From Octopus vulgaris (lineage: Eukaryota), in assembly GCA_951406725.2 (NCBI GenBank), contig OX597826.1:13578001-13642000 (forward strand): DNA of 64,000 nucleotides, given 5' to 3'. Positions within the stretch are counted from its first letter, which is position 1, and each line of letters begins with the position of its first letter. Positions 9,998-50,470 of the stretch are shown here, piece after piece. Both the position numbers and the translations under genes were made by a program. The notes under the pieces were generated by a model, which was not told the origin of the DNA, ran no database searches, and was given only the letters and a program-made list of their open reading frames with translations.

Positions 9998-10030
<33 letters not shown>

Positions 10031-10128: not shown

Positions 10129-10166
10129 TCTTTAACGTTTCGAGCCTACGCTCTTCAACAGAAAGA
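10129..10166 (-). ncRNA. Minimal type I hammerhead-like motif, 3' pseudo-LTR (variant core CUGUUGA)
   Basis: UCUUU-CUGUUGA-A-GAGC(GUAG)GCUC-GAAA-CG-UU-AAAGA. Stem I UCUUU/AAAGA, loopless palindromic stem III. Confidence 0.7.
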
Positions 10167-10658
10167 TACACACAGAGAGAAAAACACAGAAAGAAGGAGA
10201 GAAAAAAAATGCGTGCAGTAGCTAACGAATCAACATGGCGATCTGATTTCGGCCAGAGGTCAAAGATCAAACATGAGACGCGAGAGCGAAATAAGGGGAG
10301 ATAATAGGGTTGAGGGACCAGCTAAAAGTGCGTGGGAGGGGTCTGGATGTGTGTATGTATAGGGTTGGTGTATGTATTAGTATGTATAAGGGTGTGTGTG
10401 TGTGTGTGTGTGTGTGTATGAGAGAGTATTAGTGCGTAGGATTGGTCTGGACGTGCGTATGTATGGGGTTGGTGTATGTATTAGTATGTATTAGTATGTA
10501 TTAGTACGTATTGGTATGTATAGGTGTGTGTGTGTGTGTGTGAGAGAGTATAAGTGCGTATGCGGGGTCTGGACGTGTGTATGTATAGGGTTGGTGTAAG
10601 TATTAGTATGTACTAGTATGTATTAGTACGTATTAGTATGTATTAGTTGGTGTGTGTA

Positions 10659-13939: not shown

Positions 13940-14665
13940 GATGGGATAACGGAAAAAAACGTTCGAAAAAACAAAAACAAAAAAAAACAAAAAACAAAAA
14001 TTATCGTATGAAAAAAATAGAAAAAAAGGATAGCGAAAAAAGGGGAAAAAACAAACGTTCAAAAAAACAAAAAAATAATAATCGTATGAAAAAACTAGAT
14101 AAGTAAGCGATAGGGGCAGAAAAGACGGGGCAAACGGAAAAGGGAAAGAAAGAAGGGAAGCAGAGAGAGGGGGAGGCAAAAAAAGGGGGTGCAGGCAGAG
14201 GAAACGGAGTATGGACATCCAGAGAGGGAAGAAAGACGGAAAGGAGAACAAAAATTCAGGAAAATGTGGAAAGCATGAAATGAATGTAAAAAAAGTGGTA
14301 ATATAAGAGAAAATAAAAATACAACAAACGGGACAGTTTATGCGAACAAGTTCAAGGTTGAAAGTTCAAGGTGAGAAATGTGTAGACGTCGTGGTATATT
14401 TTTTAAGGATTTCACATCAATGCAAAGTCACTTTGATCCGCGAAAGAGAGGTGCAGCCAATGGTAAGTATCCAAGAGGTAAAGAAAATCCAAGGTAGAGG
14501 TAAGTGTTGATAGTGGTATTGGTAGAATATAGGATGAAAGTGAGACCACGTGAGCGCATAATATATAACGGGAAGCTTTATGAAAATAAACAAAAGACGA
14601 AGGCAGGTGGAAAACAAACGAACAATTGTATTAGTATGGCGCTCAGGAAATATAAATAAAACAAG

Positions 14666-14703
14666 TCTTTAACGTTTCGAGCCTACGCTCTTCAACAGAA
14701 AGA
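14666..14703 (-). ncRNA. Minimal type I hammerhead-like motif, 5' pseudo-LTR (identical copy)
   Basis: Same sequence as 10129-10166, offset 4537 bp. Confidence 0.7.
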
Positions 14704-16037
14704 TACACACAGAGAGAAAACACAGAAAGAAGGAGAGAAAAAAAATGCGTGCAGTAGCTAACGAATCAACATGGCGATCTGATTTCGGCCAGAGGTCAAA
14801 GATCAAACATGAGACGCGAGAGCGAAATAAGGGGAGATAATAGGGTTGAGGGACCAGCTAAAAGTGCGTGGGAGGGGTCTGGATGTGTGTATGTATAGGG
14901 TTGGTGTATGTATTAGTATGTATAAGGGTGTGTGTGTGTGTGTGTGTGTGTGTATGAGAGAGTATTAGTGCGTAGGATTGGTCTGGACGTGCGTATGTAT
15001 GGGGTTGGTGTATGTATTAGTATGTATTAGTATGTATTAGTACGTATTGGTATGTATAGGTGTGTGTGTGTGTGTGTGAGAGAGTATAAGTGCGTATGCG
15101 GGGTCTGGACGTGTGTATGTATAGGGTTGGTGTAAGTATTAGTATGTACTAGTATGTATTAGTACGTATTAGTATGTATTAGTTGGTGTGTGTATTAGTA
15201 TGGCACATCATATGTGATGTGATGTGTAAAGTCATGTGGTGTAGTGAGGAGAAGAGGGGGAGGGGAGAAGAGGGGGAGAAGGGGAGGGGAAGAAGAGGGG
15301 GAGGGGATGGTGAAGAGGAGAGGATGGGGAGAAGGAAGGGGAGGAGAGGGATGAAGGAGGAAAGAGGGAGAGGGGGAGAGAGAGGGAGAGGAGGAGAGAG
15401 AAGGGGAGAGAGGGGAGAGAGGGAGTGAGGGAGCAGAGGGAAGGGGAAGAGGGAGGGAGAAAGAGGGAAGAAGGAGGGAAGAAGGGAAGGGGAGTAGGGG
15501 TGAAAGGATGAAGGACTGAAGAGGTAGTGGTCGGGGGAGAAAGGATAGGTGAGGAGGGGGGAGAGGGGGGTTAGATGAGGAGGGGGGAGAGTTGAGACCA
15601 AATGGCGTATAAGAGCGAAGAGAGAAGATTAATTCCTGTTCACGGCGCAAACGGGAATCCGGATGGCCTCTGTGTAAGGACAAACCGAACACAGATAGGT
15701 GTTGCAAGGAGTGACCGGTGGAGCGGAAATGGCGTGAGACCGGTGTGTCGTTCGCAAGGTGGATGTCACGAAGGTGTTCCGCGAACCGGTCAGCCAAGCG
15801 GCGTCCCGTTTGAACTACACGTGTTTCAGAATTGGAAGATTACAATATATATACATATACACAACTGTATACCTATATATGTATACATATATAAATACAT
15901 ATATGCAATCATTAGATTTACAATTATTCCAACACATCTTCAGGTTCTATTTCAAAATATTATATATCTAATTTTACATCCCATTAAATATAAGCAATAC
16001 AATGAAGCATTAAAGATTAAAAATTACGAATTAGAAA

Positions 16038-16337
16038 TCTTTATATATAAAAGTGAAGTTGTGTGTCTTTCTCCTACAATTTAGATTCCTAACTACTCCC
16101 ACATTTTGCGGTGCAGTTAAACCAAAAGCGGGTATCTTATAGTCGTGATTCATATCGAGCCCTTCCGGGTATTAGCGCGCGTCTACGATGAGTCTACGAT
16201 TTAAAAAAAAAATTACCATAATTTTTCCGCATTTTTAATGCATTTTCGCTCGGTTTATATAAGGGAAGTAACTCTCTATAAATGCTTATATAGTTATTTC
16301 CCTTACAAACCTGAGCAACGCCGGGCGATACTGCTAG
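16038..16337 (+). mobile_element. Non-autonomous Helitron, copy 1
   Basis: A|TCTTTATATATAAAAG...gagcaacgccgggcgatactgCTAG|T. TC/CTAG ends, A-T target, subterminal GC-rich hairpin. Confidence 0.85.
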
Positions 16338-16538
16338 TTAAGAATAAAAATTAAGAATGAAAATTGAGAATAAAAATACAAATTCAGAATGAAAAATTAT
16401 ACTTTGTAATATTAAGAATTAAATTTTTTAAATTATACATTATAAATATGAATTAGTATATATATCAATCATGACTGATACACTTCAATGTGCGCGCGCG
16501 CACACGTGTGTATATGTATGTATCAATATTTATGTATA

Positions 16539-18736: not shown

Positions 18737-19120
18737 TCTTTATATATAAAAGTAAGGTTGTGTGTCTGTCTCCTACGATTTAGATTGCTAACTACTCCCA
18801 CATTTTGCGGTGCAGTTTAACCAAAACCGGGTATCTTATAGTCGTGATTCGTATCGAGCCCTTCTGGGTACGATGAGTCTACGATTTAAAAAAAAATTTA
18901 CCATCATTTTTTTCCATTTTAATGCATTTTTTTCGCTATTATATAAGGGAAGTAACTCTCTGAAAATGTCTACGATGAGTCAACGATTTTAAAAAAAAAT
19001 TACCATAATTTCTTTCCATTTTTAATGCATATTTTTGCTATTTTTTGGCTATAACTCTCTAAAAATGCTTATATAGTTATTTCCCTTACAAACCCGAGCA
19101 ACGCCGGGCGATACTGCTAG
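18737..19120 (+). mobile_element. Non-autonomous Helitron, copy 2
   Basis: Same termini and body. Internal subrepeat duplicated. Confidence 0.85.
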
Positions 19121-19794
19121 TCATATAAATATCTACAACACTTTGGCATCAAAACACATACACAACCTCCGAGGACCAAAGAACAGGATCTTTCAAATCC
19201 GATTTCTTAAACATGATAGACAGCACACCCTTACGTAAGTATATCTTCGAAAATAAACTGAGCACTGACAAGAAAGGTATTAAGAATTTAACAAAGACAA
19301 ATTTTTTTGTATTCTCTCTTTTACCTTTTTACTCTTACTCTTTTACTTGTTTCAGTCATTTGACTGCAGCCATGCTGGAACACCACATTTAGTCGGGCAA
19401 ATCGACCCCTGTACTTATTCTTTGTAAGCCTAGTACTTATTCTATAGGTCTCCTTTGCTGAATCGCTAAGTTACGGGGATGTAAACACACCAGCATCGGT
19501 TGTCAAGCGATGTTGGGGGGACAAACACAGACACAAACATATACACACACATACATATTTATATATATGTACATATATACGATGGGCTTCTTTCAGTTTT
19601 CGTCTACCAAATCCACTCACAAAACTTTGGTCATCCCAAGGCTATAGTAGAAGACACTTGCCCAAGGTGCCACGCAGTGGGACTGAACACAGAGCCATGT
19701 GGTTAGTAAGCAAGTTATTTACCACACAGCCACTCCTACGCATGGTTAATCTAGAAAATACACTTAGAAATAGTAGTACTTAGAAATATTAATA

Positions 19795-19924
19795 TTAGGT
19801 TGTCCCAAAAGTTCGTAAGCACTTGCGAAATTTGAATTTTTACTCGCCAAGCACTAACAAAAACAACAAAAATTATTCCTCAAAATCAAGACATTTATGT
19901 TTACGAACTTTTGGGACAACCTTA
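19795..19924. mobile_element. mariner-derived MITE
   Basis: TIR aggttgtcccaaaagttcgtaa / ttacgaacttttgggacaacct. TA flanks. Confidence 0.8.
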
Positions 19925-21078
19925 TATTACTCCAAATTATAAACCGATTAATCTAAACATTTACTGATCGATAAACAAGGGACATTTGGCTAAAACAATG
20001 GAATCTCATAGCAGGTTATATTGTGTAACTAAACAGGAAATGCATATTGCGTTTAAAGATCTCAAAGAGAACTACTCGTTTCTCACTGGATTATACATAA
20101 AATGGCGTAGCTACAGATGTGCCCTCCAAAAGTTTCAACAAAATCGTTTCAGATAGGTTAGATTATGATTATATCAGAATTTTATGCGAAAATTAATACA
20201 GGGAAAAGTAATTCATGCACCTCCTTAAGATGTATGAGGAAACAAAGTCGAGGTGTATGAATAATACGACGTCACCCTCTTCTTTTTTCACATCAAATTC
20301 TGACATAACCGTTATGTACACTTCCTGAAACATAGTTTGAGAAAATTTTAATAAAAAATATTCATGTTTCAGATAGATAACGAGGAAATAAATTCGAGGC
20401 GTGTGACATATCCAAAACTTTTTGCCCCACTTTCCGTGAAAGTTTTTCCCCACAAATTCTGAAATAACCCAAATCTACAAAATTTAAAATGCATTACGAA
20501 AATTCCATAAAAAATATGTATATTTCGGAAAGTTATAAAAGAAACAAAATCGGTTGGACACACATTTGCAGTTATGGCCATAAAATTCGAAGTTCAAGCC
20601 TTGTGACATCGTTTTACATTCATTTGGCCCTGGAAATACGTTAAGTATGAGCTTGTCTGTGACACACTAAGGCACTTACTCTTTAATTTCACGAGAAGAA
20701 ATTCGACTGGTTGACAACTGAAAACTCACGAGAGAAGACGAATGAGACACCACAATTTGTAGTTGAAGTATTATCTTCCTGGCAGAGGAACTTAGTTGCA
20801 TTAAAGTAATAGATCGTCGAACCTTGTAGAATGGTTACAAATGGATCGGGAGTGAAGAAGAAACCTAGTTGCGGGAATGTTTGAGCACTTTTTAAAATTT
20901 GTTTGAATGTCTAGTTGACAACCTTATTTGAGAATAGTTCAAGATTCATACGCGTGTTAGGTATTTTGGAACATATATTTTCACAGTCAATAGCAAATTA
21001 CTAATACATCAAACAGTTTGGAAATTTGGAACAAAAAATCATTATACTAAAGTTTGTTTCGAACAAAAATACGTACGA

Positions 21079-21115
<37 letters not shown>

Positions 21116-21116
<1 letters not shown>

Positions 21117-21360
21117 GTTCAGCAAAATTTAGATTCAAATGAATATGGTACTTAAGTTAGATGCACCAGAATTTTGTATGGTGTTATCCATATAAACACA
21201 TGGGGTGATTATAATCAAAATAAGCAGCAAGATAAATATATGTATTGATGGAAATCCTCTATAAATGGCTGATGATTGCTCAACATTTTAAAACTGTTGT
21301 AATACTTATAATGTTTAATAAAAATGATGTAGCATGAAACGATCGTACCAAATTACCGAA
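21116..21360. mobile_element. Internally inverted fragment of the same family as 32340-32575
   Basis: 21128-21232 is the reverse complement of tail 32460-32568 (agattca.atgaatatggtacttaagtt; aatcaaaataagca.caag), while the hammerhead is on +. (TA)n both sides. Confidence 0.7.
21266..21350 (+). ncRNA. Type I hammerhead ribozyme with long helix II
   Basis: UGG-CUGAUGA-[60-nt hairpin]-GAAAC-GAUC-GUA-CCA. Homologous to 32363-32450. Confidence 0.7.
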
Positions 21361-21373
21361 AAAAAATATATAT

Positions 21374-21423
<50 letters not shown>

Positions 21424-21486
21424 GAGTGAGTAAACAAACCAAGGAAAGTAGCGCACAAAATGTTTCATGTGGTTTTTATGGATATA

Positions 21487-22525
21487 TAAGGGTATATGTC
21501 ATAACTCCTGATTCTGGAAGTTATTAAAATAAAATCAGGGATTGAACAGTCACATCATTTTCGACATAGTCTCCTTTCTTTTCGATAACTTCCTCCAGCG
21601 GTCCACAAGCTTGCTTATTCCATAGGTAAAGAAAGTTTTCGACTGGTCTCGCAGCCACTTCATACACCGCTTTCTGCGCTTTTTATACCGTAACAAATTG
21701 ATGATCTCGTTTGAGGCGATGTTTGAGTGATCCAGAGAGGTGATAGTCTGAAGGTACGAGATATGTACTCTATTCTAGCAGCATGAAACCCAATTTTTCA
21801 ATGGTTTTAACAGTGTGGGCGACCATACGTGATCTTATACAGTCGTGCAACAATAAAAATTTCTTTGACAACAGAATTCGGAGCTGGTTTTAGTTTGTTG
21901 GCTAGCATTTCGCTTTAGGTCGACACTAGTGACTGTAAACCCTTTTTCCCGGATATGTTCAAATGTGGACCCTTTTGCATCCGCCTTTTGGGTTTTGCCG
22001 CAAAGTCATGGAGCCAGGTCTCATCTCCTGTGACTATTTTCTCCTATAAAGCTTCTCCTTAATTGTCGTAGCGTTCGAGTAAGCATTGACAGATCTCTAC
22101 ACGATTGCGCTTTGGTAAACTCTCTTGGCACCCGTCTCGCACAGACTTTACGGAAGCGCAGCTTGTCGTGAATGATTTCGTAGAACCATGACTAGACCAT
22201 GCACCTCATCACAGAGAACATACACTTCATCGATGATCACCGGTCAGTTCGCCAGAACCATTTGCCGAGCTAGTTGATTCTTCACGTCAGTGTTGAAGGT
22301 TGGTGGGTCTCCTGCTACCGCTTCGTGTTTCACGCTTGCCCGGCCATTTTAAAACCTCCCGAAGAACTCGTACACACTTCTACGTAGTTGAGCGCTGTTC
22401 CCATATTGTACTGAACGTCTGCGATGAATTTCATCCCCCTGACACATAGTCAGACGAGAGAAATCGGATCACTAATCTCTGTTCTTCTTGGTGCACACTG
22501 CTAGCGGAACAGTCAAGTTTACACT
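21487..22525 (-). mobile_element. mariner transposon relic
   Basis: Broken frames give VTGDETWLHDF, VPSDYHLSGSLK, GISKLVDRWRK. Boundaries approximate. Confidence 0.8.
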
Positions 22526-22800
22526 GTAACCCCCCCACCCATCCAACAAGTAAAGAAAACTGGGATATTCAAGGCCAAAGTTCGGTTATGTAATCACAAG
22601 AGTGGGGCCAACCCTAAGAAAGCGATAGAATAAGTACCAGGCTTATAAATATTTGTACTTGGGGTCGATTCGTTCGACTAAAATTCTCAAAGGTTGTGCC
22701 TCACCATGGCCGCATTCCAATGACTAAAAGACGTCCGAGAAATGCATGTATGTATTGCGGCGGAGGGTATTTTATACAAGTTGTTCGGGAGGTTTTAAAA

Positions 22801-23040
22801 TGGCAGCGAGCTGGCAGAAACGTTAGCACGCCGGGCGAAATGCTTAGCGGTATTTCGTCTGCTGCTACGTTCTGAATTCAAATTCCGCCGAGGTCGGCTT
22901 TGCCTTTCATCCTTTCGGGGTCGATAAATTAAGTACCAGTTACGCACTGGAGTCGATGTAATCGACTTAATCCGTTTGTCTGTACTTGTTTGTCCACTCT
23001 GTGTTTAGCCCCTTGTGGGTAGTAATGAAATAGGTATTTA
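22801..23040 (+). mobile_element. Same SINE, monomer (other monomers/relics: 2680-2910-, 6770-6965-, 25750-25983-, 27590-27770-, 40480-40670-, 50490-50635+, 63066-63298+)
   Basis: Shared head and gcctttcatcctttcggggtcgataaattaagtaccag body. Confidence 0.85.
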
Positions 23041-23440
23041 TACACAATTTCGCGTTTTGCATATGCATGTACGGATTTTTTGGCGAGTTCTCACTTCCTA
23101 ATAAAGAATGTTTTAATTGGTAAAATATTTAAGAAAGGAATGGAATAATGACAAAATAACTTTGCCTGATGTAAATATACATATTATTTCGCCACAACAT
23201 GTGTGAATTATACATAGATTTATTAAACAATAATATTACACTGGCTTCATTTCTTAACCATTAATTTTATTTATTTAAACAAAGTAAAAATATCGCTGCC
23301 AACAATAACATCTGTAAATTCCCGCCACTTCACTCGTTGCTCCCCTCCCAATACGACGATTCGTTCTTTCTTTCTTTCTTTTATCTCTTTAATTTGTTTT
23401 TCCTAGTATTCTTTGTTTTTGCGTTCTTGAATAATGTGTG

Positions 23441-23621
23441 TACATACATACATACATACATACATACATACATACATACATACATACATACATACATACA
23501 TACATACATACATACATACATGCATACATACATGCATACATACATGCATTCATATATACATACATATATATATACACATGTTATGCATATATATATATAT
23601 ACATATTATATATATATATAT

Positions 23622-23671
<50 letters not shown>

Positions 23672-24278
23672 GTATGTATTTATGTATGTATATACATATA
23701 TATATGCATACACATATACAAATACATACTTACATATATACATGCATACCTACCTACCTACCTACATACATACATACACACATACATACATGCATGCATG
23801 CATGCATACATACATACATGCATACATACATACATACATACATACATACATACATACATACATACATACATACATACATGCATGCATGCATGCATACATG
23901 CATACATACATACATACATACATACATACATACATACATACATACATACATACATACATACATACATGCATACATATATTAAGGGAACCAGACAAAGAAA
24001 GTGTATGCTTATGAACTCGCGCGCGCACGCCTGTGGTGTTACACCATATCTCTCAACAGTCCCTTTCTGTTCAGTCCCCCCCCCTCTACTGGTTTTTTGT
24101 CCAATTTCCTTCTCTTTCTCTTTCTCCCTCCCTTTCCCTTCACATTAATTCCTCCTCGAAGCATCTGGTATTCTTCAGCGACTGACGGTTTTGCATTGCC
24201 CTGCCTCATAGAATTAAATGCAACAGGGGTGGAAATTATACTAGAACGAATCACACCCATCACGCTTAATATATACAT

Positions 24279-24327
<49 letters not shown>

Positions 24328-24430
24328 TGTATGTGTATGAATATACGTATGCATGTGTATTTAATATGTATATATACTTGTGCGTGCATACATACACACA
24401 TACCAAATGGATACATAAATACACTATATA

Positions 24431-24479
<49 letters not shown>

Positions 24480-24567
24480 GTATGTATATATATATACATA
24501 CATATACATACATACATACACATACATACATACATATATACTTATATATATACATACATATATATAT

Positions 24568-24616
<49 letters not shown>

Positions 24617-24617
24617 C

Positions 24618-24651
<34 letters not shown>

Positions 24652-24680
24652 TGTATGTATGTATGTATGCATGTATGTAT
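23441..24680. repeat. (TACA)n/(TA)n/(CA)n microsatellite field
   Basis: Direct inspection. Confidence 0.9.
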
Positions 24681-25215
24681 GTGTACACAGATTTAAGCAT
24701 TGCATACTTATATAATTCGCTATTTAGATTTTACGCATCTATATACGTCTGTTTAAATAGCATTGTTTTTATTAAAAAAAGTAAATAGCATTAATATAAT
24801 TAGCTTCTGACATGTTTGGTAATAAATTGCATAATGATATGCCCGAAATTTTACTACAACTGTTTTTAATAACAATTTATGATTCATATGTTAAAGAATT
24901 ATAACTCGATTCATGTTGGATGTCTGCTACATTTTACTTATGTGTTTGTTTGTCTATCACTACCTGTGACATCTACTTTCAAGTTTAGTTTGATGATGTG
25001 TTTATTGAAGTTGTTCCTGAATATAGACATGGATTTCATCATCCAATCATTGATGGTTAATTCGTTTCGTTTAAAGAGACAATAACGCAGCAGTTATGGG
25101 AAATTATGAAATTGTAACGAATTAAAATATGGCTGGTTGTCTTTTTTCTGACTGTTATAGTGTCTCTAAATTGATATTAACAAGCTCGTAACACTAAAAA
25201 ATTTCGAAATTTATA

Positions 25216-25592
25216 TCTTTATATATAAAAGTAAGGTTGTGTGTCTGTCTCCTACGATTTAGATTCCTAACTACTCCCACATTTTGCGGTGCAGTTTAAC
25301 CAAAACCGGGTATCTTATAGTCGTGATTCATATCGAGCCCTTCTGGGTATTAGCGTGCATCTACGATGAGTCTACGATTTTTTTCCATTTTAATGCATTT
25401 TTTCGCTATTATATAAGGGAAGTAACTCTCTAAAAATGTCTACAATGAGTCAACGTTTTAAAAAAAAATTTACCATAATTTTTTTTTCCATTTGTAATGC
25501 ATTTTTTTGCTATTTTTTGGCTAAAACTCTCTAAAAATGCTTATATAGTTATTTCCCTTACAAACCCGAGCAACGCCGGGCGATACTGCTAG
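25216..25592 (+). mobile_element. Non-autonomous Helitron, copy 3
   Basis: Same termini and body. Confidence 0.85.
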
Positions 25593-26211
25593 TTGTATAT
25601 AAACGAGGCTCTATTGAGGTTATGCCTCTTTGAAGATCATTAGCAATGAAACCAAACTGAATAGAAACTTCTTTAAAATCACAGCAAGTCACATATTTAG
25701 CATTTACTCCAAATCACTAGCAAAATTATCTGATAGTAATGACTTTATACCTATTTCTTTACTACCCACAAGGGGTTAAACACAGAGGGGACAAACAAGG
25801 ACAGACAAACGGATTAAGTCGGTTATATCGACCCCAGTGCATAACTGGTACTTAATTAATCGACCCCGAAAGGATCAGAGGCAAAGTCGACTTCGGCGGA
25901 ATTTGAACTCAGAACGTAACGGCAGTCGAAATACAGCTACGCATTTCGCCCGGCGTGCTAACGTTTCTGCCAGCTCGCCACCTTTTAATGACTTTATATA
26001 TCGATACAAGACCACACGTACTTTTAATGGGGATTATTTTTTTTTATTAAATTGAGTTTATTATATCATAGTTTTTATCGACATCAGAGAAATAAAAGAC
26101 AAAGGCGAACTGATATGAAATGAACTCTTATCCAAAAGAGATGAAACTTTACCGTTTAGTATACTCTGAATTGTATAGAAAGGGCATCCAATAACAGAAA
26201 CTATGCAATAA

Positions 26212-26595
26212 TCTTTATATATAAAAGTGAGGTTGTGTGTCTGTCTCCTACGATTTAGATTCCTAACTACTCCCACATTTTGCGGTGCAGTTTAACCAAA
26301 ACCGGGTATCTTATAGTCGTGATTCATATCGAGCCCTTCTGGGCTTTAGCGCGCGTCTACGATTTTAAAATAAAATTACCATCAATTTTTCCTATTTTTA
26401 ATGCATTTTTGGCATATATAAGGGGAGTAACTCTCTAAAAATTTATTATTAAATCTCAGAACGTAAAAAGCTACAGTAACACCCACCCCCCTTGTGGTTA
26501 GCCATATTGAGATGGCTATTATACTTTACATGTCTAAAAATGCTTATATAGTTATTTCCCTTACAAACCCGAGCAACGCCGGGCGATACTGCTAG
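26212..26595 (+). mobile_element. Non-autonomous Helitron, copy 4 (extra ~90-bp internal segment)
   Basis: Same termini. 26442-26532 absent from other copies. Confidence 0.85.
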
Positions 26596-28671
26596 TGGAA
26601 TATAAAAACCAAGACATATTCTTCCAACTTATCTAAGGAAGACTAGCTTCCTAGGCACTGTAAATAGCATGTACATGGTGTTATATGTCAGCTGGTAATT
26701 TGAGTTTCACCACAAGCTCAGCCCAAGAAAGAGTTCACTACCATTTTGCTTGTACATAATGTTTTGTATATCACAACTGGAGCATTGGTAGTCACAAGCT
26801 TCCGACAGGCCAACCACTGCTCACTATATTTCTGAAAGAATAAGTAGTACAGGAGTAACTATAAACTTGATGCAGAACAAATTTTTCAAAGGGCTTCATT
26901 TGTAAAGCACCAGTTTCTCTGACCAGTGACACAGTCTTATTAGATTACTAGATTGTTTAAACATTTCGGGTTACTTAAATTAATTAACAATTATAATCTG
27001 TTACGCTAACCACTCTTTAAAAATGCTTAATCGTTGGAAGTTTTCAGTTAGGAAGAAGGTGAACATTTACAATACGGAATATGCTTGTCCATTATATCGA
27101 ATTTACAAACGTAATAGACAACCAATTACTGTAATACTAGAGAATAAAAACGACTCGTATAAGGTATCCGAAGTCATTACTAGGGTTCATTTGAATATCT
27201 GTTTGAATATCACTGGCTTATGATTAAGAACAGTCATGAATCTGAGTGGAAGAGATATAATTTATGATCGTAATGCATTTTCTAAATACATTAATAGAGT
27301 AAAGGAAGAGAAATATCTTTAACTTAGAATTAAAAATCTGCCAAATCTTCAAGAAGGCTGTTCGAGCCGTGATTACTCCGTCATTATTTAGATATAATGT
27401 ATCCAGAATTTATAATCCCATGTGATATCACTTCTTTTAAGGAGGAAGCGCAAAATTTGTGGAAGATTTGGCTGCTGAATTTAGTATATCGTATGATCAT
27501 TTAGAAGTATTCCTCGTGGTTCGATATTTTGAAATATTGCGACGAATATGAATTATCATGTTTTGTCGTGAAATGATAACAATCCTCTCTAATATAGGCA
27601 CAATGTCTGAAATTTTGAGGGAGAGGGTAGTCGATTACATCGACCCCGGTACTTGATTGATACTCATCTTATCGATCTTGAAAGGATGAATGGCAAAAAA
27701 GTTGAACTCAGAACATTGAAATGCTAACCATTTTGTCCGGCGTGCTAACGTTCCCGCTAGCTTGTCGCCATAAATAGAATGATAGTTATAAGGTAATACT
27801 TCCGCTTTCATATATAACGAATTAAAATTCTGAACACTGAATACTGAAACAAAAAAAGAACATATACTTCACAATCTCCAGCTACTCTGCCTATAAAATC
27901 TTGAATTTATTTGTACGCTAGAAGAATATTCCTGACTCAAAAAGGTTAACTTTAAATTAACTTTCACAAGCACACATTGTACACACACTCACACACACAC
28001 ACACACAGAAAAGCATTTTCACACTTTCTTCAAGAATGATTTTGATCCTACCTCTTCTTCCCCTCTCTACACGTAGCTGAACTGCTTGACCAATGCCACA
28101 AACCAATTAACACACCTACACATACCCATTTTCACATTCTGAACTTGCATCCATCATATTGCACTTGCACTTCTTTCAAAACAGCTCCTTGTTTCTCCTC
28201 TCCTTCTTCCGTCGGTACTTATCTGTCGTTTCACAGCACTTACAGACGTACTTTACTTCACTATCTTTTCAACTTCCCGCGTTTAAGCTCTTTCATAATC
28301 ATGCCATATTTTCACCGGGATCTTTTACCATTGTCTTCGGTTGTTACTTTCACTTCCGACGTTTACTATCGTAAATTTTCTGTTGTCTGTCTTAATCCTT
28401 CACTCTTTGTTTCACTGTTGTACGTCCCCAAAATAATGTTTTTCTCACCTACCTTAATATATTTTCAGTTTATGCACATTGCAGATGGTTTCACCTTTCC
28501 ACGTAAGCTGCAGTACTTTCTTGGCACCTGTAGTTACATACACACTCGTTCATACAGCCTTGCATACACGCTTTCCGACTACTTACCCAACGTTAACACA
28601 ACAACATCATCCCACTCATCCCATAACCAAAGACATCAAATTTTCACCCTTAAACATCGATACACATGCAT

Positions 28672-29105
28672 ATACGAGGAGGTACCCAAAAGAAACCAGA
28701 ATTTTGCTGGTAGAAACGTTAGCACGCCGGGCGAAATGCTTAGCAGTATTTCATCTGCCATTACGTTCTGAGTTCAAATTCTACCGAGGTCGACTTTGCC
28801 TTTCATCCTTTTGGGATCGATAAATTAGGTACCAGTTACGCACTGGGGTATATGTACTCGACTTAATCCCTTTGTCTGTCTTTGTTTGTCCCCTCTATGT
28901 TTAGCCCCTTGTGGGCAATTAAGAAACAAGAATTTTGCAATATTATCTTATTCACTTAGTTTTCCATGTTTACACTTTTGTCGCCTTCAAAGTATTCTTC
29001 ATTTGAAGCAATGCATCAGTCCAAACGCGTTTTCCACTGTTCGAAACAATGCTAGAACTCTTGCGAAGTGATGAATTTTAACGGCTCTGTTATTTTTTCT
29101 TCCCT
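28672..29105. mobile_element. mariner end fragment interrupted by a SINE (28707-28925)
   Basis: TA|CGAGGAGG start. aagaaac(c/a)agaattttgc duplicated either side of the SINE (TSD-like). Confidence 0.5.
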
Positions 29106-29818
29106 TCTCCCACATCTGCAAATGCCGTAGTACTAGCTTTCGTCACTAGTGATGACTTTCGAAAACGTTCCGGATCAACTTCCAGCTGTTCTTTCAGTTC
29201 ACGAGGCACAATCAGTCGTGACTGCTTTTCACCTTCTGTGAGCAAGTGACCTTCTGAAAGCATTAAGTTATTACTGGGTTTCAGTCGCTTTGCCTTCTCT
29301 GTATTGTACTGCAGTTTTTGCATTCCATTACACACACACACATATATGTATGTGTATATGCTTTATATGCGTACTAAGGCTGCTATTGGTTTCATGTTAA
29401 AGAATAACTCAAGAATTATCAAACCTTTCGCATCGGAGCTCGTCTCCATTTTGGATTAAAACACGATAAGTCACGGAAAGTTACAAGAAAATCACGCGAG
29501 AAGTTCGGTGGCAAAAAGACAGAAGACATCGGGGGAACAACTCTAGGATGATTATCTCCCTTCGATTCGACTTCTCGTAAAATTAAGATTCACATTTGTA
29601 TACATGTATACACAACCCTGAATTAATATTTAACGTGCATAAAATTTTACAATTTCAAAATTTGTTCACTTAAAAGTTCCTATTTACATACATGTGCACC
29701 TGGTTGGTGAATGTTTATCACATACTATGACATCAAAATTTTAGTGTTTTTGTAATTTCATATACTACTGAGTTTGTGGATATGTGCGTATTCATAGATT
29801 AGTATATTTATCTGTCTT

Positions 29819-29890
<72 letters not shown>

Positions 29891-29901
29891 ACTATCTATC
29901 G

Positions 29902-29963
<62 letters not shown>

Positions 29964-29976
29964 TCTGTGTGTCTGT

Positions 29977-30084
<108 letters not shown>

Positions 30085-30230
30085 GACATAGTATATATTT
30101 AAATACATAGAGAATCCACTTATAGGGATTCCACGTGCTAGAAAGAACAGCTAAGTTCTATAACCACCAAAAATTGGGAATAAGATTCGACAGGAATAAA
30201 TTTGGAAATTAAAAACATTTACCATCTAGA

Positions 30231-30308
30231 TTCCTGGACCAATTAGTTTCTAATCTTCTTTTAGCGAGTCATAGAGAGCTCACAAGGGCTGATTTTCGTT
30301 AGCAAGAA
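30231..30308 (-). ncRNA. Hammerhead-like motif with CUAACGA core (inverted copy)
   Basis: Reverse-complement copy of 30531-30608 with a few substitutions. Confidence 0.55.
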
Positions 30309-30530
30309 CCAACTTATCTACACGAGACAAAACAGGCTACCTGTCCCGTGTACGTACAACCTAACTTTTCAAATTTTCTTCGCAGACGCAATAAACCGCC
30401 AACTTTTAACCGAAAATTATCCAAAAATCTGCAGTATTCAATCATATCAAAGGGAAATGGAATTTAATTAAAGTTAAAAATATTCAATCAAGAAACATAT
30501 AGCATATTTTGTCTCGTGTAGATAGGTTGG

Positions 30531-30608
30531 TTCCTGCTAACGAAGATCAGCCCTTGTGAGCTCTCTATGACTCGCTAAAAGAAGATTAGAAACCAATTGG
30601 TCCAGGAA
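30531..30608 (+). ncRNA. Hammerhead-like motif with CUAACGA core
   Basis: UUCCUG-CUAACGA-[45 nt]-GAAA-CCAAUUGG-UC-CAGGAA. Perfect 6-bp stem I, palindromic stem III, GUC site. Confidence 0.6.
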
Positions 30609-30887
30609 TCTAGATGGTAAATGTTTTTAATTTCCAAATTTATTCCTGTCGAATTTTATCCCCAATTTTTTTTGTGGTTATAGAACTTAGCTGTTCTTTC
30701 TAGCGCATAGAATCCCTATAAGTGGATTCTCTATGTATTTAAATATACACTGTATCGTATGACTAATATATAGTCTTTTTTTACTAAAATCTTTTACGCG
30801 TTGGACCACTGGAAAAGTAATTTTTGATTGAATGCTTTTAACTTTAATTAAATTCCATTTCCCATTGATATGATATATATATACACT

Positions 30888-30941
<54 letters not shown>

Positions 30942-30947
<6 letters not shown>

Positions 30948-31372
30948 CAATTAAGGACAACTTCTTAATAAGGAAAACTTAACAAGAAATTATCTGGTAG
31001 ATAGCGTGAAAGACCTCATAAGAGAAAACATTTCGAAAATAATTCTTTCTTATAACATATTAATTTATATATAGAGGGCATTATTATACATACATGCCAC
31101 ACGCTAAGAGGGACAAAATTAGTCATTTCTACCAAAAATTTTACTAATCCCACCGAATGCAATTTTTCAAAGTAAGACATTTAAAAATATGGACTTGTAT
31201 CACCTGTGATTTCATACCTCTGTATTCATCAGCAAGCCTGGACGTATCATAAATGTCTTACTTTGAAAAATTGCATTCGGTGGGATTAGTAAAATTTTTG
31301 GTAGAAATGACTAATTTTGTCCCTCTTAGCGTGTGGCATGTATGTATAATAATGCCCTCTATATATAAATTA
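30942..31372 (-). mobile_element. 3'-end fragment of a probable Penelope-like element with 5' fold-back
   Basis: Apparently perfect ~123-bp inverted repeat (31061-31183 / 31250-31372) with a hammerhead in the spacer. (TA)n flanks. Confidence 0.7.
31192..31238 (-). ncRNA. Canonical type I hammerhead ribozyme
   Basis: GGCUUG-CUGAUGA-AUAC(AGAG)GUAU-GAAA-UCAC(AG)GUGA-UA-CAAGUC. All three stems and the full core are present. Confidence 0.88.
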
Positions 31373-31389
31373 TATATATATATATATAT

Positions 31390-31614
31390 TGATAGAAATG
31401 GCAAGACAACAAAAGAATGATGGAGACCTCGATATTATGTAACTAGAGGAATTTATCTGTAAATGTAATATGTGACAATTATTCAGTAGCCATGATAAAA
31501 CTCCAAGTTTCGGATGTCGGGGCGGAACCCACGCCGACACCTCTTCAGTTATCTGGTCATAAAAAAAATGCTATGAAAATGACCGTTAAACAGTCCTTTG
31601 TTTAACGGTCATTT
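31390..31614 (-). mobile_element. 3'-end fragment of a probable Penelope-like element
   Basis: Hammerhead 31494-31553. Tail ends in (TA)n. 16-bp perfect hairpin 31577-31614 at the 5' junction. Confidence 0.6.
31494..31553 (-). ncRNA. Type I hammerhead ribozyme
   Basis: GAUAA-CUGAAGA-GGUGUCGG...CCGACAUCC-GAAAC(UUGGA)GUU-UUAUC. Confidence 0.8.
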
Positions 31615-31616
31615 AT

Positions 31617-31689
<73 letters not shown>

Positions 31690-32362
31690 AAGAGAGAGAC
31701 TTTTGTATACATAAACATGAAATGTACTTATATCTGCATTTCTGTGCGTACATTTTGGACACTTATACGTGATTGTGAAATTTCACGTATATGTTACGAA
31801 CATATTCTTACAAGTATCTTAATGTCGAATTTGTAATATTCTTCTTAATAATCCTCTGAATAACCCTAAACTTTAACTTTATACAATATAGCACTATTTT
31901 TTAAAATATTTAACTATAGTACGACATGATAAGATTTCCCCTGTGTCATTATCAATGGTCCGCTAGTGGCCAGCCCCTTAATTGTCAGTTAACATCTTGA
32001 TTTAAGTTTTTCCTTTACCAAATCTCATGATATTGCTTCTAATAAATCTTGATTTTTTTATGACTATACCCACTATGATTTCTGTCGACTCCCTCAGCCC
32101 TACCCCTAACAGACACTGCCGCTTGTCCTCTCGGCCTTAGATATACAAGGATTTGATAAAACTAGTCTATAAATTATAACTGACCCCATAAAACAGTGAC
32201 AAGCAAGATCTGTAACAAATCTTTCTTCCTGATACCTTAGTAACTTCTAAGTTGAAGTGAAGGCAGCATGTTCTTTGTCTATCTCCTTACCTTCTTGGAG
32301 ATTTCAGGTAAAATTATACTAATGTATCCATCTGTTTTAATTTAATTAAATTCTATGTCTTT

Positions 32363-32450
32363 GTGCAGCTGAGGATTGCTCTGCATTTAAATTGATGTAA
32401 TGTTTGCATTGTTCAATTAAATGTAGTTGCGTGAAACGATCGTACTGCAT
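32363..32450 (+). ncRNA. Type I hammerhead ribozyme with long helix II
   Basis: GUGCAG-CUGAGGA-[57-nt hairpin incl. CUGCAUUUAA/UUAAAUGUAG]-GAAAC-GAUC-GUA-CUGCAU. Confidence 0.82.
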
Positions 32451-33195
32451 TACTTCTGGATATCCTTGTTGCTTATTTTGATTTTAACCACCTTATTTTG
32501 AAATTGTATGGATAATACCGAACTAAATGCTGGTACCTCAACTTAAGTACCATATTCATCTGAATCTATGTATATATGGCCCGAGGCTATAATCGAAGGC
32601 ACTTACTCGAAGTGACACGCAGAAGGATTTAACCAGGAACCCTACTGTTCAGAAGCAAACTTCTTGTCACACAACCACGCCTTTCCGTGCGCATGTATGT
32701 GCGCATGCATATAATTACATAACACACACATACTTATACACATACACGCACCCACACACGCACCTACACGCACCCCCACACACACATATATGAATATGTA
32801 TACATAAATATACATGTCTATATAAATAAATAAAAATATATCATATACACACGCTACATAGATACATACAAAGGCGCTTTCATGCTTATATGTATATATA
32901 TTTATATAGACCTATGAGGGCGAGAAAGAAAGAAAGAAAGAAAGACAGAAAGGAAGAAAGAAAGAAAGAGTGATGTACGAATAAATACGAAATTAATCTC
33001 TTGGTATGATGGAGACAAAAGAGCGTAAGGAGAGAACCATTCATGTGTGGTCTAAGAGTTTGTTTACGTCTTTCGGTTCCCTTTTTTGCTTGTAAACTTC
33101 GGCTGTATATTCAAATGTATATATATATATTTGGTTGTTTGTTTATGCACTCGTGAGTATGAGTGTATATATGTATATGTATGTATATATGTATG

Positions 33196-33816: not shown

Positions 33817-34745
33817 AGGCGGTGAGCTGGCAGAAATGTTAGCACGCCGGGCGAAATGCGTTGCCATATTTCGTCTGCCGTTACGTTCTGAGTTCAAATT
33901 CCGCCGAGATCGACTTTGCCTTTCATCCTTTCGGGGTCGATTAAATAAGTACCAGTTACGCACTGGGGTCGATGTAATCGACTTAATCCGTTTATCTGTC
34001 CTTGCTTATCCTCTCTGTGTTTAGCCCCTTGTGGGTAGTAAAGAAATAGGTATTTCGTCTGCCGCTACGTTCTGACTTCAAATTCCGCCGAGGTCGACTT
34101 TGCCTTTCATCTTTTCGGGGTCGATTAAATAAGTACCAGTTACGCACTGGGGTCGATATAATCGACTTAATCCGTTTATCTGTCCTTGTTTATCCTCTCT
34201 GTGTTTAGCCCCTTGTGGGTAGTAAAGAAATAGGTATTTCGTCTGCCGCTACGTTCTGACTTCAAATTCCGCCGAGGTCGACTTTGCCTTTCATCCTTTC
34301 GGGGTCGATTAAATAAGTACCAGTTACGCACTGGGGTCGATATAATCGACTTAATCCGTTTATCTGTCCTTGTTTATCCTCTCTGTGTTTAGCTCCTTGT
34401 GGGTAGTAAAGAAATAGGTATTTCGTCTGCCGCTACGTTCTGACTTCAAATTCCGCCGAGGTCGACTTTGCCTTTCATCCTTTCGGGGTCGATTAAATAA
34501 GTACCAGTTACGCACTGGGGTCGATATAATCGACTTAATCCGTTTATCTGTCCTTGTTTATCCTCTCTGTGTTTAGCCCCTTGTGTGTAATAAAGAAATA
34601 GGTATTTCGTCCGGCTTCAAGTTCTGAGTTAAAATTTGCCCGTCATCCTTTCGGGGATGATTAAGTAGGGGTTGGGTACAGGGATCGATGTAATCGACTT
34701 ATCTCCTCCCACGAAATTGTTGGCGTTCTGCCAAAATTTGAAATC
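33817..34745 (+). mobile_element. tRNA-derived SINE (Meta-like central domain) tandem array, 184-bp period
   Basis: Head ggcggtgagctggcagaa with B-box-like gttcaaattc. Junctions at 34049, 34233, 34417, 34601. Confidence 0.9.
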
Positions 34746-42398: not shown

Positions 42399-42995
42399 GG
42401 CGGCGAGTTGGCAGAATCGTTAGCATGCCGAGCGAAATGCTTAGTGGTATTTCGTCTGTCGTTACGTTCTGAGTTCAAATTCCGCCGAGGTCGACTTTGC
42501 CTTTCATCCTTTCGGCGTCGATAAATTAAGTACCAGTTACACACTCGGGTCGATGTAATCGACTTAATCCCTTTGTTTGTCCTTGTTTGTCCTCTCTGTG
42601 ATTAGCCCCTTGTGGGTAGTAAAGAAACAGGTATTTCGTCTGCCGCTACGTTCTGAGTTCAAATTCCGCCGAGGTTGACTTTGCCTTTCATCCTTTCGAG
42701 GTCGATAAATTAAGTACCTGTTACACACTGGGGTCGATATAATCGACTTAATCCCTTTGTCTGTCCTTGTTTGTTCTCTCTGTGTTTAGCCTCTTCTGGG
42801 TAGTAAAGAAATAGGTATTTCGTCTGGCGTTATGTTCTGAGTTCAAATTCCGCCGAGGTTGACTTTGCCTTTCATCCTTTCGGGGTCAATAAATTAAGTA
42901 CCAGTTACGCACTGGGGTCGATGTAATCGACTTAATCCCCTTCTCTGTCCTTGTTTGTCCCCTCTCTGTTTATTGTGGGCAATAAAGAAATAAGA
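42399..42995 (+). mobile_element. Same SINE, 3-unit array
   Basis: Junctions at 42630 and 42814. Confidence 0.9.
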
Positions 42996-47099: not shown

Positions 47100-47820
47100 G
47101 TTGGCGTGCTGCCAGAAACGTTACGTTCTGAGTTCAAATTCCGCCGAGGTTGACTTTGCCTTTCATCCTTTCGAGGTCGATAAATTAAGTACCAGTTACG
47201 CACTGGGGTCAATATATTCGACTTAATCCCTCTGTCCTTGTTTATCCTCTCTGTGTTTAGCCCCTTGCGGGTAGTAAAGAAATAGGTATTTCGTCCGTCT
47301 TTACGTTCTGAGTTCAAATTCCGCCGAGGTCGACTTTGCCTTTCATCCTTTCGGGGTCGATAAATTAAGTACCAGTTACGCACTGGGGCCAATATAATCG
47401 ACTTAATCCCTCTGTCCTTGTTTGTCCTCTCTGTGTTTAGCCCCTTGCGGGTAGTAAAGAAATAGGTATTTCGTCCGTCTTTACATTCTGAGTTCAAATT
47501 CCGCCGAGGTCGACTTTGCCTTTCATCCTTTCGGGGTCGATAAATTAAGTACCAGTTACGCACTGGGGTCAATATAATCGACTTAATCCCTCTGTCCTTG
47601 TTTGTCCTCTCTGTGTTTAGCCCCTTGTGGGTAGTAAAGAAATAGGTATTTCGTCTGCCGCTACGTTCTGAGTTCAAATTCCGCCGAGGTCGAATTTGCC
47701 TTTCATCCTTTCGGGGATCGATAAATTAAGTACCAGTTGCGTACCAGTCAATCTAATCGACTGGCCCCCTCCCCCAAAATTTCAGGCCTTGTGCCTATAG
47801 TAGATAGGATTATTATTATT
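47100..47820 (+). mobile_element. Same SINE, 4-unit array (180-bp period), last unit with alternative tail
   Basis: Junctions at 47285, 47465, 47645. Followed by further SINE copies 47830-48170. Confidence 0.9.
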
Positions 47821-48279
47821 GTCGTATAAGACGGCGAGCTGGCAGAATGCTTAGCGGTATTCGCCCGTCGCTACGTTCTGGTTTCAAATTCTGCCATGAT
47901 CGACTTTGCCTCTCATCCTTTCGAGGTCGATAAAATAAGTATCAGTTAAAAACTAGGGTCGATGTAATCGACTCACCCCCCCCCCAAATTACTGCCCTTG
48001 TGGCAAAATTTGAAACCGTTATTATTGTTATCATTTTAAAGTTTGATGGCTTGGGCAGAATCGTTACGGCGTCGGAAAACTGCCTTGCTACTTGTGCTCT
48101 GACCCTTCCACATTCTGAATTCAAGTCCTGCAGAGGTCAACTTTGCACTTCGTCCTTTCCGGGTCGGTTGTATCAGTCAGGTATGGTGTCGTTGGTGACG
48201 ACTAATACCCTACTTACAATATTGCTGAACTTGTACCTAACTCATCGTCATCGTCATCATCCTCCTCCGCGGCTCTCGG

Positions 48280-50470
48280 TAGTAAGTGCAAGGTTCAGCG
48301 AAAAGCCGATAACGGCCACTGAAATACGAGAAGTGATTGCACAAGTCGCAAATTGCCAGGCTTAGATAGTCTGCCCTATGAATTTTATGTATTCGTGCCC
48401 GATTTGTCTGGCGACGTTATGTCGAACAGTTACTGACGTTAGTTGGGAAGTGGTGACACTGCTGAAGAAGGACGCCAACAGTGGGGACATACTAGGGATT
48501 TTTCGGCCCACAATTCTACTAAACACTAAGTTTAAGATTTTGGTCAAGGTGTTGGCGAAAAGGTTGGTGATTGTCGTTGGTTATCTTGTAGGAGAAGTAC
48601 AAACATGCACAATCCCAAACAGGTCTATCCACGACAACCTCCACCTTATGCGATACATCATAGAGAGGGCTGGAACTAAAGCTGGCTTCGGTGGGGCCCT
48701 GATCCATTTGGATCAATCAAATGCATTCGATAGAGTCGAGCATCGCTACCTGGAAGCTGTCCTTAAAGCGGACAGTTTCGAACCCTTTTTCAGAGGGTGG
48801 ATCGCTGTATTGCACAGCGGAACCTTCTCGGTGGTCAAAGTAAATGGCCATCTATCAGAACCGCTTAGCATCGTACACTCGGTCCGTCAGCGCTGCCTAA
48901 TGTCACCACTTCTGTACGTGCTGGCTCTCGAGCCGAGAAGTAGGCGAGCTTGCGACTGGGCACCTGGAGAGGCTGTCAGGTGGCCCCGTCGGACGCTAGA
49001 CTGCCGGACTAGTTAAATTGCTCGGGTTCTGGTTTGGTCTCGACCACCCGGTCGATAAGAACTGGGACAAGGTGACGAACAGGATGGTCAATCTTATCCA
49101 GAAATGGGTTGAGAGGAAGCTGTCCTTGAAAGGTCGGGCAGAGGTGGCGAATACCTACAACACCTCCGTCATCATTTATCATCTGACGGTTGTGCCTTTC
49201 CCCAGTTACTGCTTGATCAAGTTGGAGTGTCTCTTGTTCATGTTCTTGTAGAAGGGGCGCGTTTCAATGGTCAGGCAGTCAATCTACTGTCAGCTCCCTC
49301 TGAGTGGCGGCTTAGGCATGCCGTGGCTTTTGATGGGCAGATATGCGCTCAGATTGCGCCATCTGCAACGATTTCTAGAAGATGAACGTGTGTGGGCTCC
49401 GTTTGTGAGGCACATGTGTCCGCAACTCGTCTCTTTAACGGAGCTGCAGTCCTGGGTGAAGGGTAAACCAAGAGTGGGCGCCTGGCACCTAGAATGTCGT
49501 CAGACGCTCACTGTCCTCTACCAGTCGGGCAGTAGGATCGGTGGATGTTCCACTTTAGCAATCTATAGACGATTAGTGACGGGAAAGTGCGACGACGTCC
49601 TAAGGGAAACTGGGCGTTGATGAAGATGAACTGACTAGTATGTTTCGGAGGACTTTTCGGTCGGGGACTATTATGGATAATTTCCAGGTGTCTTTGGCTT
49701 GGCGGTACTACCGGGGTGGGGGTGGGGCACCACCGGTTAGTGGTAAACTCTACAGTCACAGATGTGCTGGCAGACGGGCTTGACCGAGGTGCACGCAGAG
49801 CAACGAAACCGTTCTGCATGCACTCATTCAGTTTCCGGTAATTGTTGACTTATGGAGTTATGCCGAACAGCTGCTGTCGCGTGTGGAACGGATCCGTCAG
49901 TCGTCCGCCCCATAGTGATGATTGTCCTGCTGTCCTCCTTTAATCGGGCAGACAAGGCAGTTTTCCTTTACCTGGTTGCTGTGGCGAAAGAGGTTGTCTG
50001 GTGGACGAGGCTGAAAGGAACGGGGACAGTGACGTTCCTCTTTAGTAAAGGCCTCATCGACTTTTTAAGTTTCACTTGAAAACCAAAGTGAGGGTGGAGA
50101 GGCGAGTGTTGACCTCGAGTGAATTTATGAAAAGGAGTGTGAAAGTTGCGAAAATGGCAAGAGTGGATGGTGCCACTCTCAATGTAGAGCTGTGAGTCGG
50201 AGGAAAGGAGTTGGAAAAGGTATCCGTCCGAGGTATTCAGGGTCGTCTTGGATGGTGGGGATATCCCTAGGGGTCCTCCTCTGTCAGAAGGACCTCTATC
50301 ACAATTTTCTTTTACATATTGCTGCACACTATATATACCTCTCTTCTTTTAATGTAAACTGTATATACCATTTTTTTTCTTGTCATTCCATTATGTATAA
50401 GCCCCCAATTTTTATGTCTATCTTTGTATTGTCCCTTTATTCTTCGCCTTGGTGGTAAATAAAAGAAATT
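48280..50470 (+). mobile_element. 5'-truncated, decayed L1/Tx1-type LINE (RT pseudogene)
   Basis: FRPTILLNTKFKILVKVLAKRL, LDQSNAFDRVEH, SVRQRCLMSPLLY, LSLKGRAEVAN, GGLGMP across broken ORFs. YADD region appears deleted. Ends aataaaagaaa(tta)n. Confidence 0.85.

Follow-up and report, generated by a model that had tools for sequence, protein, structure and literature searches.

Two motifs of the hammerhead ribozyme kind, each with a helix II of about 60 nt, raise the question of what sequence they belong to and where selection on their RNA structure, if there is any, would act. They lie 11 kb apart in the window (the whole stretch of DNA that was analysed, 64,000 nucleotides of the Octopus vulgaris contig OX597826.1; all positions below are positions in it) and are its only copies. 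We consider it probable that the two (copies A and B) are type I hammerhead motifs and that the abundant repeat which carries them at its 3' end, 5'-truncated and finishing in (TA)n, is likely the terminal repeat (pseudo-LTR) of a Penelope-like element (PLE); this assessment covers the whole explanation, including the mechanism proposed below. The parts of the motifs are as follows.

32364 to 32449, + strand: hammerhead motif copy A, type I (5-bp stem I, CUGAGGA, long helix II, GAAA, palindrome; predicted cut after A32444)
32376 to 32432, + strand: helix II of A (U.U closure, 3-bp base, 1x2 loop, about 19 more pairs, 4-nt apical loop)
32436 to 32443, + strand: palindrome ACGAUCGU of A (from monomer and dimer folding)
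21266 to 21350, + strand: hammerhead motif copy B (3-bp stem I, CUGAUGA, 60-nt helix II, palindrome as in A; predicted cut after A21347)
21276 to 21335, + strand: helix II of B (U.U closure, 4-bp base, several mid-arm pairs broken)

Both copies have type I topology, with three helices around the core and helix I open, and both carry the complete sequence signature of a hammerhead with an unusually long arm: the core C3 U4 G5 A6 N7 G8 A9 is complete, and G12 A13 A14, the A15.1-U16.1 pair and the H17 triplet are present as GAAAC...GUA. In copy A, stem I (UGCAG at 32364-32368 with CUGCA at 32445-32449) encloses the core CUGAGGA at 32369-32375, a helix II of 57 nt, GAA at 32433-32435, the palindrome and H17 (A32444); in copy B, stem I is UGG/CCA, the core starts at 21269, and helix II is followed directly by GAA, the palindrome ACGAUCGU at 21339-21346 and H17 (A21347). 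A sequence-only reading of this DNA had proposed that CUGANGA and GAAAC-GAUC-GUA are kept in two diverged copies and that helix III is a palindrome, and both statements hold, with the same 8-nt palindrome in two copies that are 75% identical over 89 nt. The proposal of a hammerhead-type family with a long helix II is likewise borne out, with arms of 57 and 60 nt: the pattern CTGANGA-N40-70-GAAACGATCGT has two matches in the window and none in each of 100 shuffles, and a stricter descriptor (helix I, closed helix II and the 8-nt palindrome) also has two, with none in 100 block shuffles. A covariance model built from the two sequences and run on the window matched only its own two inputs, the five further matches having E values of 0.88-4.7.

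Folding predicts a single hairpin for helix II in A (-16.6 kcal/mol, z -3.75, with 1 of 200 shuffles as good) and in B (-10.7 kcal/mol, z -2.29, 7 of 200), with pair probabilities of 0.7-1.0 near the base. A correction to the sequence-only reading concerns the closure of helix II: a U.U mismatch closes the helix in both copies, and the usual G10.1-C11.1 pair, which is quasi-conserved and not obligatory, is absent. U10.1-U11.1 is a known natural variant of the hammerhead, as described in parts of two reports (PMC3088659, PMC7229834). Helix III has only 2 bp in the monomer (pair probability 0.00), whereas the duplex that two copies form through the palindrome has 8 bp and -10.0 kcal/mol. There is no loop at the distance usual for a contact between helices I and II; the 1x2 loop of A corresponds to a bulge in B and to paired bases in a second subfamily described below.

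Standard searches pass over both motifs. Rfam at its gathering score had no match in the whole window; at E values up to 10 over 20900-32900 it had 137, none of a hammerhead family and none on A or B; and on the motifs alone it had five and four chance matches, none of a hammerhead family. As the sequence-only reading had suspected of length-restricted searches, the published descriptor of minimal hammerheads allows a stem II of 3-7 bp and a loop of 3-10 nt, 26 nt at most (PMC4209133, in the portion available), and A and B fall outside it because their helix II measures 57-60 nt. The long arm likely explains why Rfam misses A and B, but the miss is not specific to it, the short minimal hammerheads of a PLE in the window (below) being missed at the gathering score as well. 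Pattern searches in other sequence collections served as negative controls: among viral contigs the strict pattern had no match and a looser one had 29 loci, none of which (0/29) combined palindrome, helix I and closed helix II; among metagenome contigs none of 42 loci had a helix I of at least 3 bp plus a paired helix II base; and the motif pattern had no match in prokaryote genomes. A literature search that covered the running text of papers, short of the 2017 study of Lunse et al., which reportedly deals with variants of PLE hammerheads, returned no PLE-type hammerhead with an arm of such length and no hammerhead in a cephalopod repeat. The repeat annotation of Octopus vulgaris from 2026 includes Penelope-like families in its accessible portion, where neither 'ribozyme' nor 'hammerhead' occurs (PMC13282606), and PMC10085705 deals, as far as its available text goes, with other hammerhead variants.

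The visible covariation that the sequence-only reading described is real but not significant from two copies. In the alignment of A with B, which has 30 pairs, four are double changes (two in helix I and two in helix II), two are one-sided and eight are unpaired in one copy; the score was equalled by 38 of 500 shuffles, and sliding the partners left no double change. Compensatory change in stem I, one of the specific claims, thus amounts to two double-changed pairs, with two of A's five pairs lost in B; the corresponding claim for helix II also stands for two double-changed pairs, although the arm that had been quoted for B (CAACAUUUU/AAAAUGAUG) contains an A.A mismatch. On the + strand, G.U pairs outnumber A.C mismatches 5 to 1.

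A broader sample came from contigs of four public runs, aligned to 31720-32580 at 80% likeness. The family changes given here come from the listed part of that alignment, which comprised 24 loose ends (of 1487), 40 variant places (of 202) and 15 joints (of 94). The first core box, CUGA(A/G)GA, is kept in all six listed consensuses that span it, and the second, GAAAC...GUA, in both that span it. In a second subfamily (rows of 67, 61, 55 and 58 contigs), the 5' arm reads AGCGG and the 3' arm CCGCU, a linkage that we infer because the two arms come from separate rows. Its first helix II pair is A-U rather than U-A, G-C pairs replace the small internal loop, helix I begins with U-A rather than G-C (rows of runs X1 and X3), and one row has GGCC, another GGUC, at the centre of the palindrome, where A and B have GAUC; one family consensus, among those listed, has the palindrome ACGGCCGU. 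One consensus that includes both distal arms (39 contigs, run X7) turns a distal G-C pair into A-U and alters the apical loop while keeping the apical stem. Changes in the other direction also occur: position 32424 is G in 97% of the depth of run X1, so that the G.U pair of A is a purine mismatch there in most copies (B has A.A); a consensus of four contigs in run X15 breaks two distal pairs; and in one contig 46 nt of the arm, bounded by two short repeats, are skipped, which would leave a helix II of 11 nt. A loose end of run X7 behind 32388, at first a candidate for a symmetric deletion, proved on re-alignment to be a substitution variant.

Family consensuses beyond A and B, as far as their sequences go, therefore show compensatory changes in helices I and II and in the palindrome. 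The claim that covariation marks selection on RNA structure, for which the pair A/B alone is not significant, finds its support here, in the consensus loose ends of other copies. It is very improbable, by contrast, that the hairpin is an inverted duplication made at the DNA level in an AT-rich repeat, with a dead relic for a core and no selection on RNA. A and B are indeed old and partly decayed, and the opposite strand of A also folds better than shuffles (z -2.83 against -3.75, a weak strand asymmetry). Yet all core bases are intact in A and B at 75% identity and in all eight listed consensuses, pairing is preserved through changes in three helices and the palindrome, and the 5 to 1 excess of G.U over A.C is found on the + strand.

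What the motifs are attached to is a high-copy repeat, a context that the sequence-only reading had missed. Its parts at the two loci are these.

31830 to 32568, + strand: 5'-truncated copy A of the hammerhead-bearing repeat (depth from about 31830, tiling contigs), followed by a short TA remnant
32462 to 32568, + strand: 3'-terminal segment of the repeat past hammerhead A, 80% identical to the inverted segment of B
21116 to 21234, - strand: inverted 3'-terminal piece of the repeat in B, matching 32462-32568 plus the last 14 nt of the family, head-to-head with 21235-21356
21083 to 21115, no strand: (TA)n tract flanking insertion B on its left (repeat scan)
21366 to 21422, no strand: (TA)n tract flanking insertion B on its right (repeat scan)

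The stretch of A is matched by 10320, 9513 and 7817 contigs of three DNA-type runs with three organism labels. Summed depth is zero before 31778, 2-7 x 10^4 at 31836-31951 and 0.8-1.6 x 10^6 at 32387-32473; set against a single-contig depth of about 50 (the median of eight pieces listed per run), this amounts to 16,000-32,000 times that value at the hammerhead, against 300-600 times at the far end, to be read as an order of magnitude and not as a copy number. The repeat thus has roughly 10^4 copies, with which two copies per 64 kb agree. Overlapping contigs tile 31834-32568, which makes this one element of at least 740 bp; depth rises some 50-fold from 31836 to 32387-32473, a rise for part of which the 80% likeness filter may account, and by contig depth most copies hold just the last 250 nt or so.

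The ends of the repeat are staggered. In A coordinates they fall at 32454, 32483 and 32568-32582; loose ends with (TA)n follow 32483, 32567, 32568 and 32577, and TA loose ends occur in all four runs. The segment 32465-32568 of A matches, inverted and at 80%, the segment 21130-21231 upstream of hammerhead B, and the left end of B has the same last 14 nt that reads have behind 32568 ahead of (TA)n. Insertion B is therefore composed of an inverted 3' piece and a direct hammerhead piece, the latter ending 10 nt past the cut site, with TA tracts on both sides. According to the part of the source available (10.1101/2021.04.23.441226), PLEs insert as 5'-truncated copies to which an inverted piece and a tail are often joined, and (TA)n is the target of several clades; 5' truncation, the inversion in B and the (TA)n ends are the footprint of a PLE. 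We infer, rather than observe, that the repeat belongs to a PLE, because no reverse transcriptase gene is linked to the family here, and we class it as PLE-like and not as a PLE member, because the truncated 740-bp copy has no reverse transcriptase-endonuclease (RT-EN) frame: within the 530 bp that precede A there is no long frame, Pfam matches none of the six frames, and tblastn with the PLE protein of the window finds nothing.

The lack of a coding trace over at least 740 bp, and the restriction of most copies to about the last 250 nt, also suit a non-autonomous, gene-less element (a non-LTR retrozyme or a retrozyme-like monomer) that would depend on other PLEs for the enzymes that move it and might pass through circular RNA. 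Animal retrozymes have been proposed as derivatives of PLE pseudo-LTRs, measure 51-972 bp and also occur as monomers (10.64898/2026.07.22.740005, in part), and a U.U is found at the helix II base of the hammerhead in an axolotl retrozyme (PMC7229834, in part). We nevertheless regard this as decidedly unlikely: the repeat scan of both loci finds neither A nor B in a tandem array, none of the 15 joints listed (of 94) ties the 3' end of the repeat back to its start, the gradient of 5' truncation and the inversion are traits of PLE insertion, and the PLE of the window likewise has about 900 non-coding bases ahead of its hammerhead. Since there is no tandem, we do not class the repeat as a retrozyme.

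Two further observations concern the repeat. An ATG lies 64 nt past the cut site in A (32508-32582) and in the inverted piece of B (21116-21191), where a change in codon 3 is synonymous; as the start of an open reading frame it was rejected, the frame closing after 12 codons in A and 18 in B, and by analogy with the anole element it may be a decayed start codon of the frame in the following unit. The 946 contigs of run X15 were set aside as evidence of transcription, the RNA type of the run being only a guess and contigs being unable to show cut ends.

Since A and B represent the terminus of a repeat with many copies, likely of Penelope type, the covariation most likely reflects selection on active source elements and not on loci A and B, which we read as passive, decaying copies, selection being expected on the source elements. 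Host adoption, in which A and B would be ribozymes selected in place, is extremely improbable: the A stretch is found in runs of four organism labels (0.31-0.69 of its words), but a repeat of some 10^4 copies can account for shared words, and B has just a 3-bp stem I and broken mid-arm pairs.

The remainder of the window bears on both the element type and the arm. Seven hammerhead motifs emerged from a relaxed scan, which gave 0.11 per shuffle: besides A and B, there are three minimal motifs with a 13-nt helix II, one with 45 nt and one with 109 nt. Helix II thus measures 13, 45, 57-60 and 109 nt across four families, which have no sequence likeness beyond the core. The elements concerned are listed here.

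10030 to 15812, - strand: near-complete PLE that has RT and C-terminal GIY-YIG, ends in (TA)n and bears a minimal hammerhead (helix II of 13 nt) in both of its direct pseudo-LTRs
15812 to 15947, - strand: hammerhead of another family (type I motif, U.U closure, 109-nt helix II, palindrome ACACGUGU; relaxed scan and folding)
30531 to 30608, + strand: hammerhead of another family, a decayed motif (G5 changed) with 45-nt helix II and a 10-nt palindrome (relaxed scan)

The PLE at 10030-15812 is young, its direct repeats being 99.7-100% identical, and it has a Neptune-like CX4CX2C linker. Its RT-EN frame (13073-10659) overlaps an upstream frame (14251-12962), which indicates a coding region shifted by one frame change near 13070, and the best relatives of its protein in a protein search are 52-57% identical, the named ones coming from snails, sea urchin, coral and shark. 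The minimal hammerheads of both its repeats read CUGUUGA (A6 changed), and a third, older copy at 36178-36151 reads CUGUAGA; the hammerhead lies 103 nt ahead of the (TA)n end and follows about 900 non-coding bases. The 109-nt helix II contains a TA-rich microsatellite and folds better on the opposite strand than on that of the motif; its predicted cut, after 15816, is 3-4 nt from the start of the upstream repeat of the adjoining PLE, and its position beside that repeat is possibly a chance insertion or a template switch. The 45-nt motif belongs to a head-to-head inverted repeat (30084-30757) whose arms are 96% alike over 260 nt and adjoin TA/TATC tracts, with a decayed hammerhead in each arm carrying the identical changed core base.

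As for the arm, the long helix II is most likely a clamp that would hold a weak, U.U-closed helix base shut; pairing in the arm would be selected in the source elements and its length tolerated, and it looks tolerated rather than fixed because it takes four such different values in four families. PLE hammerheads show no loop-loop contact that would restrict helix II. That the arm has a specific job beyond clamping, as a dock for the element protein or for a dsRNA enzyme such as ADAR that switches cleavage, we consider unlikely but worth entertaining. The 57-60 nt are kept in copies 25% apart and, by continuous depth across the arm, in the bulk of family contigs; the distal stem has a compensatory change, a purine mismatch is kept at one place in most copies, and one PLE hammerhead is protein-assisted (PMC11167929, in the part available). 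Arm length nevertheless varies eight-fold among the families of the window, one arm carries a TA microsatellite, the internal loop near the base gives way to G-C pairs in the second subfamily, and the contig that omits 46 nt dispenses with most of the arm. A wider version, which is speculative and rather unlikely, would have several Penelope-type lineages independently gain a long hairpin in place of a short helix II (45-109 nt, U.U-closed in two families), the arm being a docking module through which the element protein or an RNA-editing enzyme switches cleavage on, with tens of thousands of such motifs per genome outside the descriptors.

Returning to the clamp and to a PLE-type repeat, the following mechanism would account for the two loci. 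The RT-EN of a PLE would nick TA tracts, and the element RNA would be copied from internal starts that lie beyond the hammerhead cut site by about 10, 40 and 125-140 nt; priming may be possible on either strand, and priming on both would give rise to copy B. With its 2-bp helix III, the monomeric ribozyme would have hardly any activity; cutting, predicted after GUA, would need either the pairing of two copies through the palindrome or help from the element protein. A and B would both have been made from uncut RNA, because both run across the predicted cut site, over which their sequence is continuous. There is precedent for several of these steps. PLE pseudo-LTRs carry type I hammerheads with a palindromic helix III, weak cutting and dimer cutting, in the available parts of PMC4209133 and PMC6765202; for an anole PLE in vitro, the accessible text of PMC11167929 describes internal initiation past the hammerhead, extension of both strands and use of uncut RNA, and the hammerhead of that element cuts only with protein present.

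PLE hammerheads are known, and their census relies on descriptors that limit helix II to about 26 nt. A family of about 10^4 copies with an arm of 57-60 nt, together with two more long-armed families in 64 kb, implies that such censuses can miss whole families, and claims that an element lacks a hammerhead merit a re-check free of the helix II limit. The natural series of arms from 13 to 109 nt and the thousands of diverged copies are test material for how far protein-assisted or dimeric hammerheads tolerate such arms; a long-armed family alone does not point to new chemistry or to a host function.

The window holds other repeats that we record as observations. It is AT-rich (31-54% GC per 2-kb bin) and has many microsatellites. 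Tandem SINE-like repeats of 180-184 bp, which we take to resemble an octopus SINE, lie at 33867-34611, 42446-42972, 47121-47738, 60695-61250 and 22850-22990; a text search of the literature with three short motifs of the 184-bp repeats returned no paper. A second reverse transcriptase remnant with broken frames occupies 48000-49620 on the + strand (RVT_1, E 1.5e-11 at 48378-49016). Four repeat copies of 300-380 bp, 78-87% alike (16039-16338, 18738-19121, 25217-25593 and 26213-26596), end in ...CTGCTAGT, which presumably marks a Helitron-like element. Inverted repeats typical of small DNA transposons lie at 31162-31271, 19790-19929 and 22343-22804, the last two with terminal arms of 30-32 bp, and a GC-rich, low-complexity frame of 350 codons at 610-1662 (+ strand), which has no Pfam match, may be a host exon.

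Comparison with known systems, each as far as the available part of its source describes it, places the repeat closest to PLEs. Animal non-LTR retrozymes (PMC7229834, 10.64898/2026.07.22.740005) share with it a type I hammerhead, a weak helix III and non-coding sequence, and the axolotl HHR_Amex2 (PMC7229834) shares with A and B the U.U at the base of helix II; retrozymes are defined, however, by head-to-tail tandems with a hammerhead per unit and by circular RNA, whereas the repeat here has no tandem and no evident loop-loop motif. A natural helix II longer than usual has a precedent in the minus-strand hammerhead of Chrysanthemum chlorotic mottle viroid (PMC3705267), in a viroid context, and the 'long helix II' hammerheads of chrysoviruses (PMC13725137) reach only 6-8 bp, in a fungal-virus context. 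EN+ PLEs that target (TA)n (Neptune, Hydra and Naiad; 10.1101/2021.04.23.441226) resemble the repeat in 5' truncation, an inverted terminal piece, staggered 3' ends and (TA)n flanks, and they and the anole Poseidon element PAc (PMC11167929) resemble it in a hammerhead about 100-150 nt before the end and in copies made from uncut RNA. The 3' ends of the repeat, however, lie at offsets of about 30, 85-100 and 128 nt, against one tail of 30-40 bp in EN+ PLEs, and Naiad PLEs, unlike the repeat, have no hammerheads. The PLE pseudo-LTR hammerheads of Cervera and de la Pena 2014 (PMC4209133) are, like A and B, of type I, with a helix I of 3-5 bp and a palindromic helix III suited to dimers, and occur mostly as solo copies in truncated repeats. 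Unlike them, A and B have no G10.1-C11.1 pair and no linked RT-EN frame in view, and while helix II in that set has 3-8 bp and a short loop, about 25 nt at most in 56 representatives, it measures 57-60 nt with about 23 pairs here, which is the variant feature of A and B. The nearest anatomy is that of the PLE hammerhead of Hydra magnipapillata (Fig. S3 of PMC4209133), which has the U.U closure, the UGC/GCA base and the palindromic helix III on a short arm.
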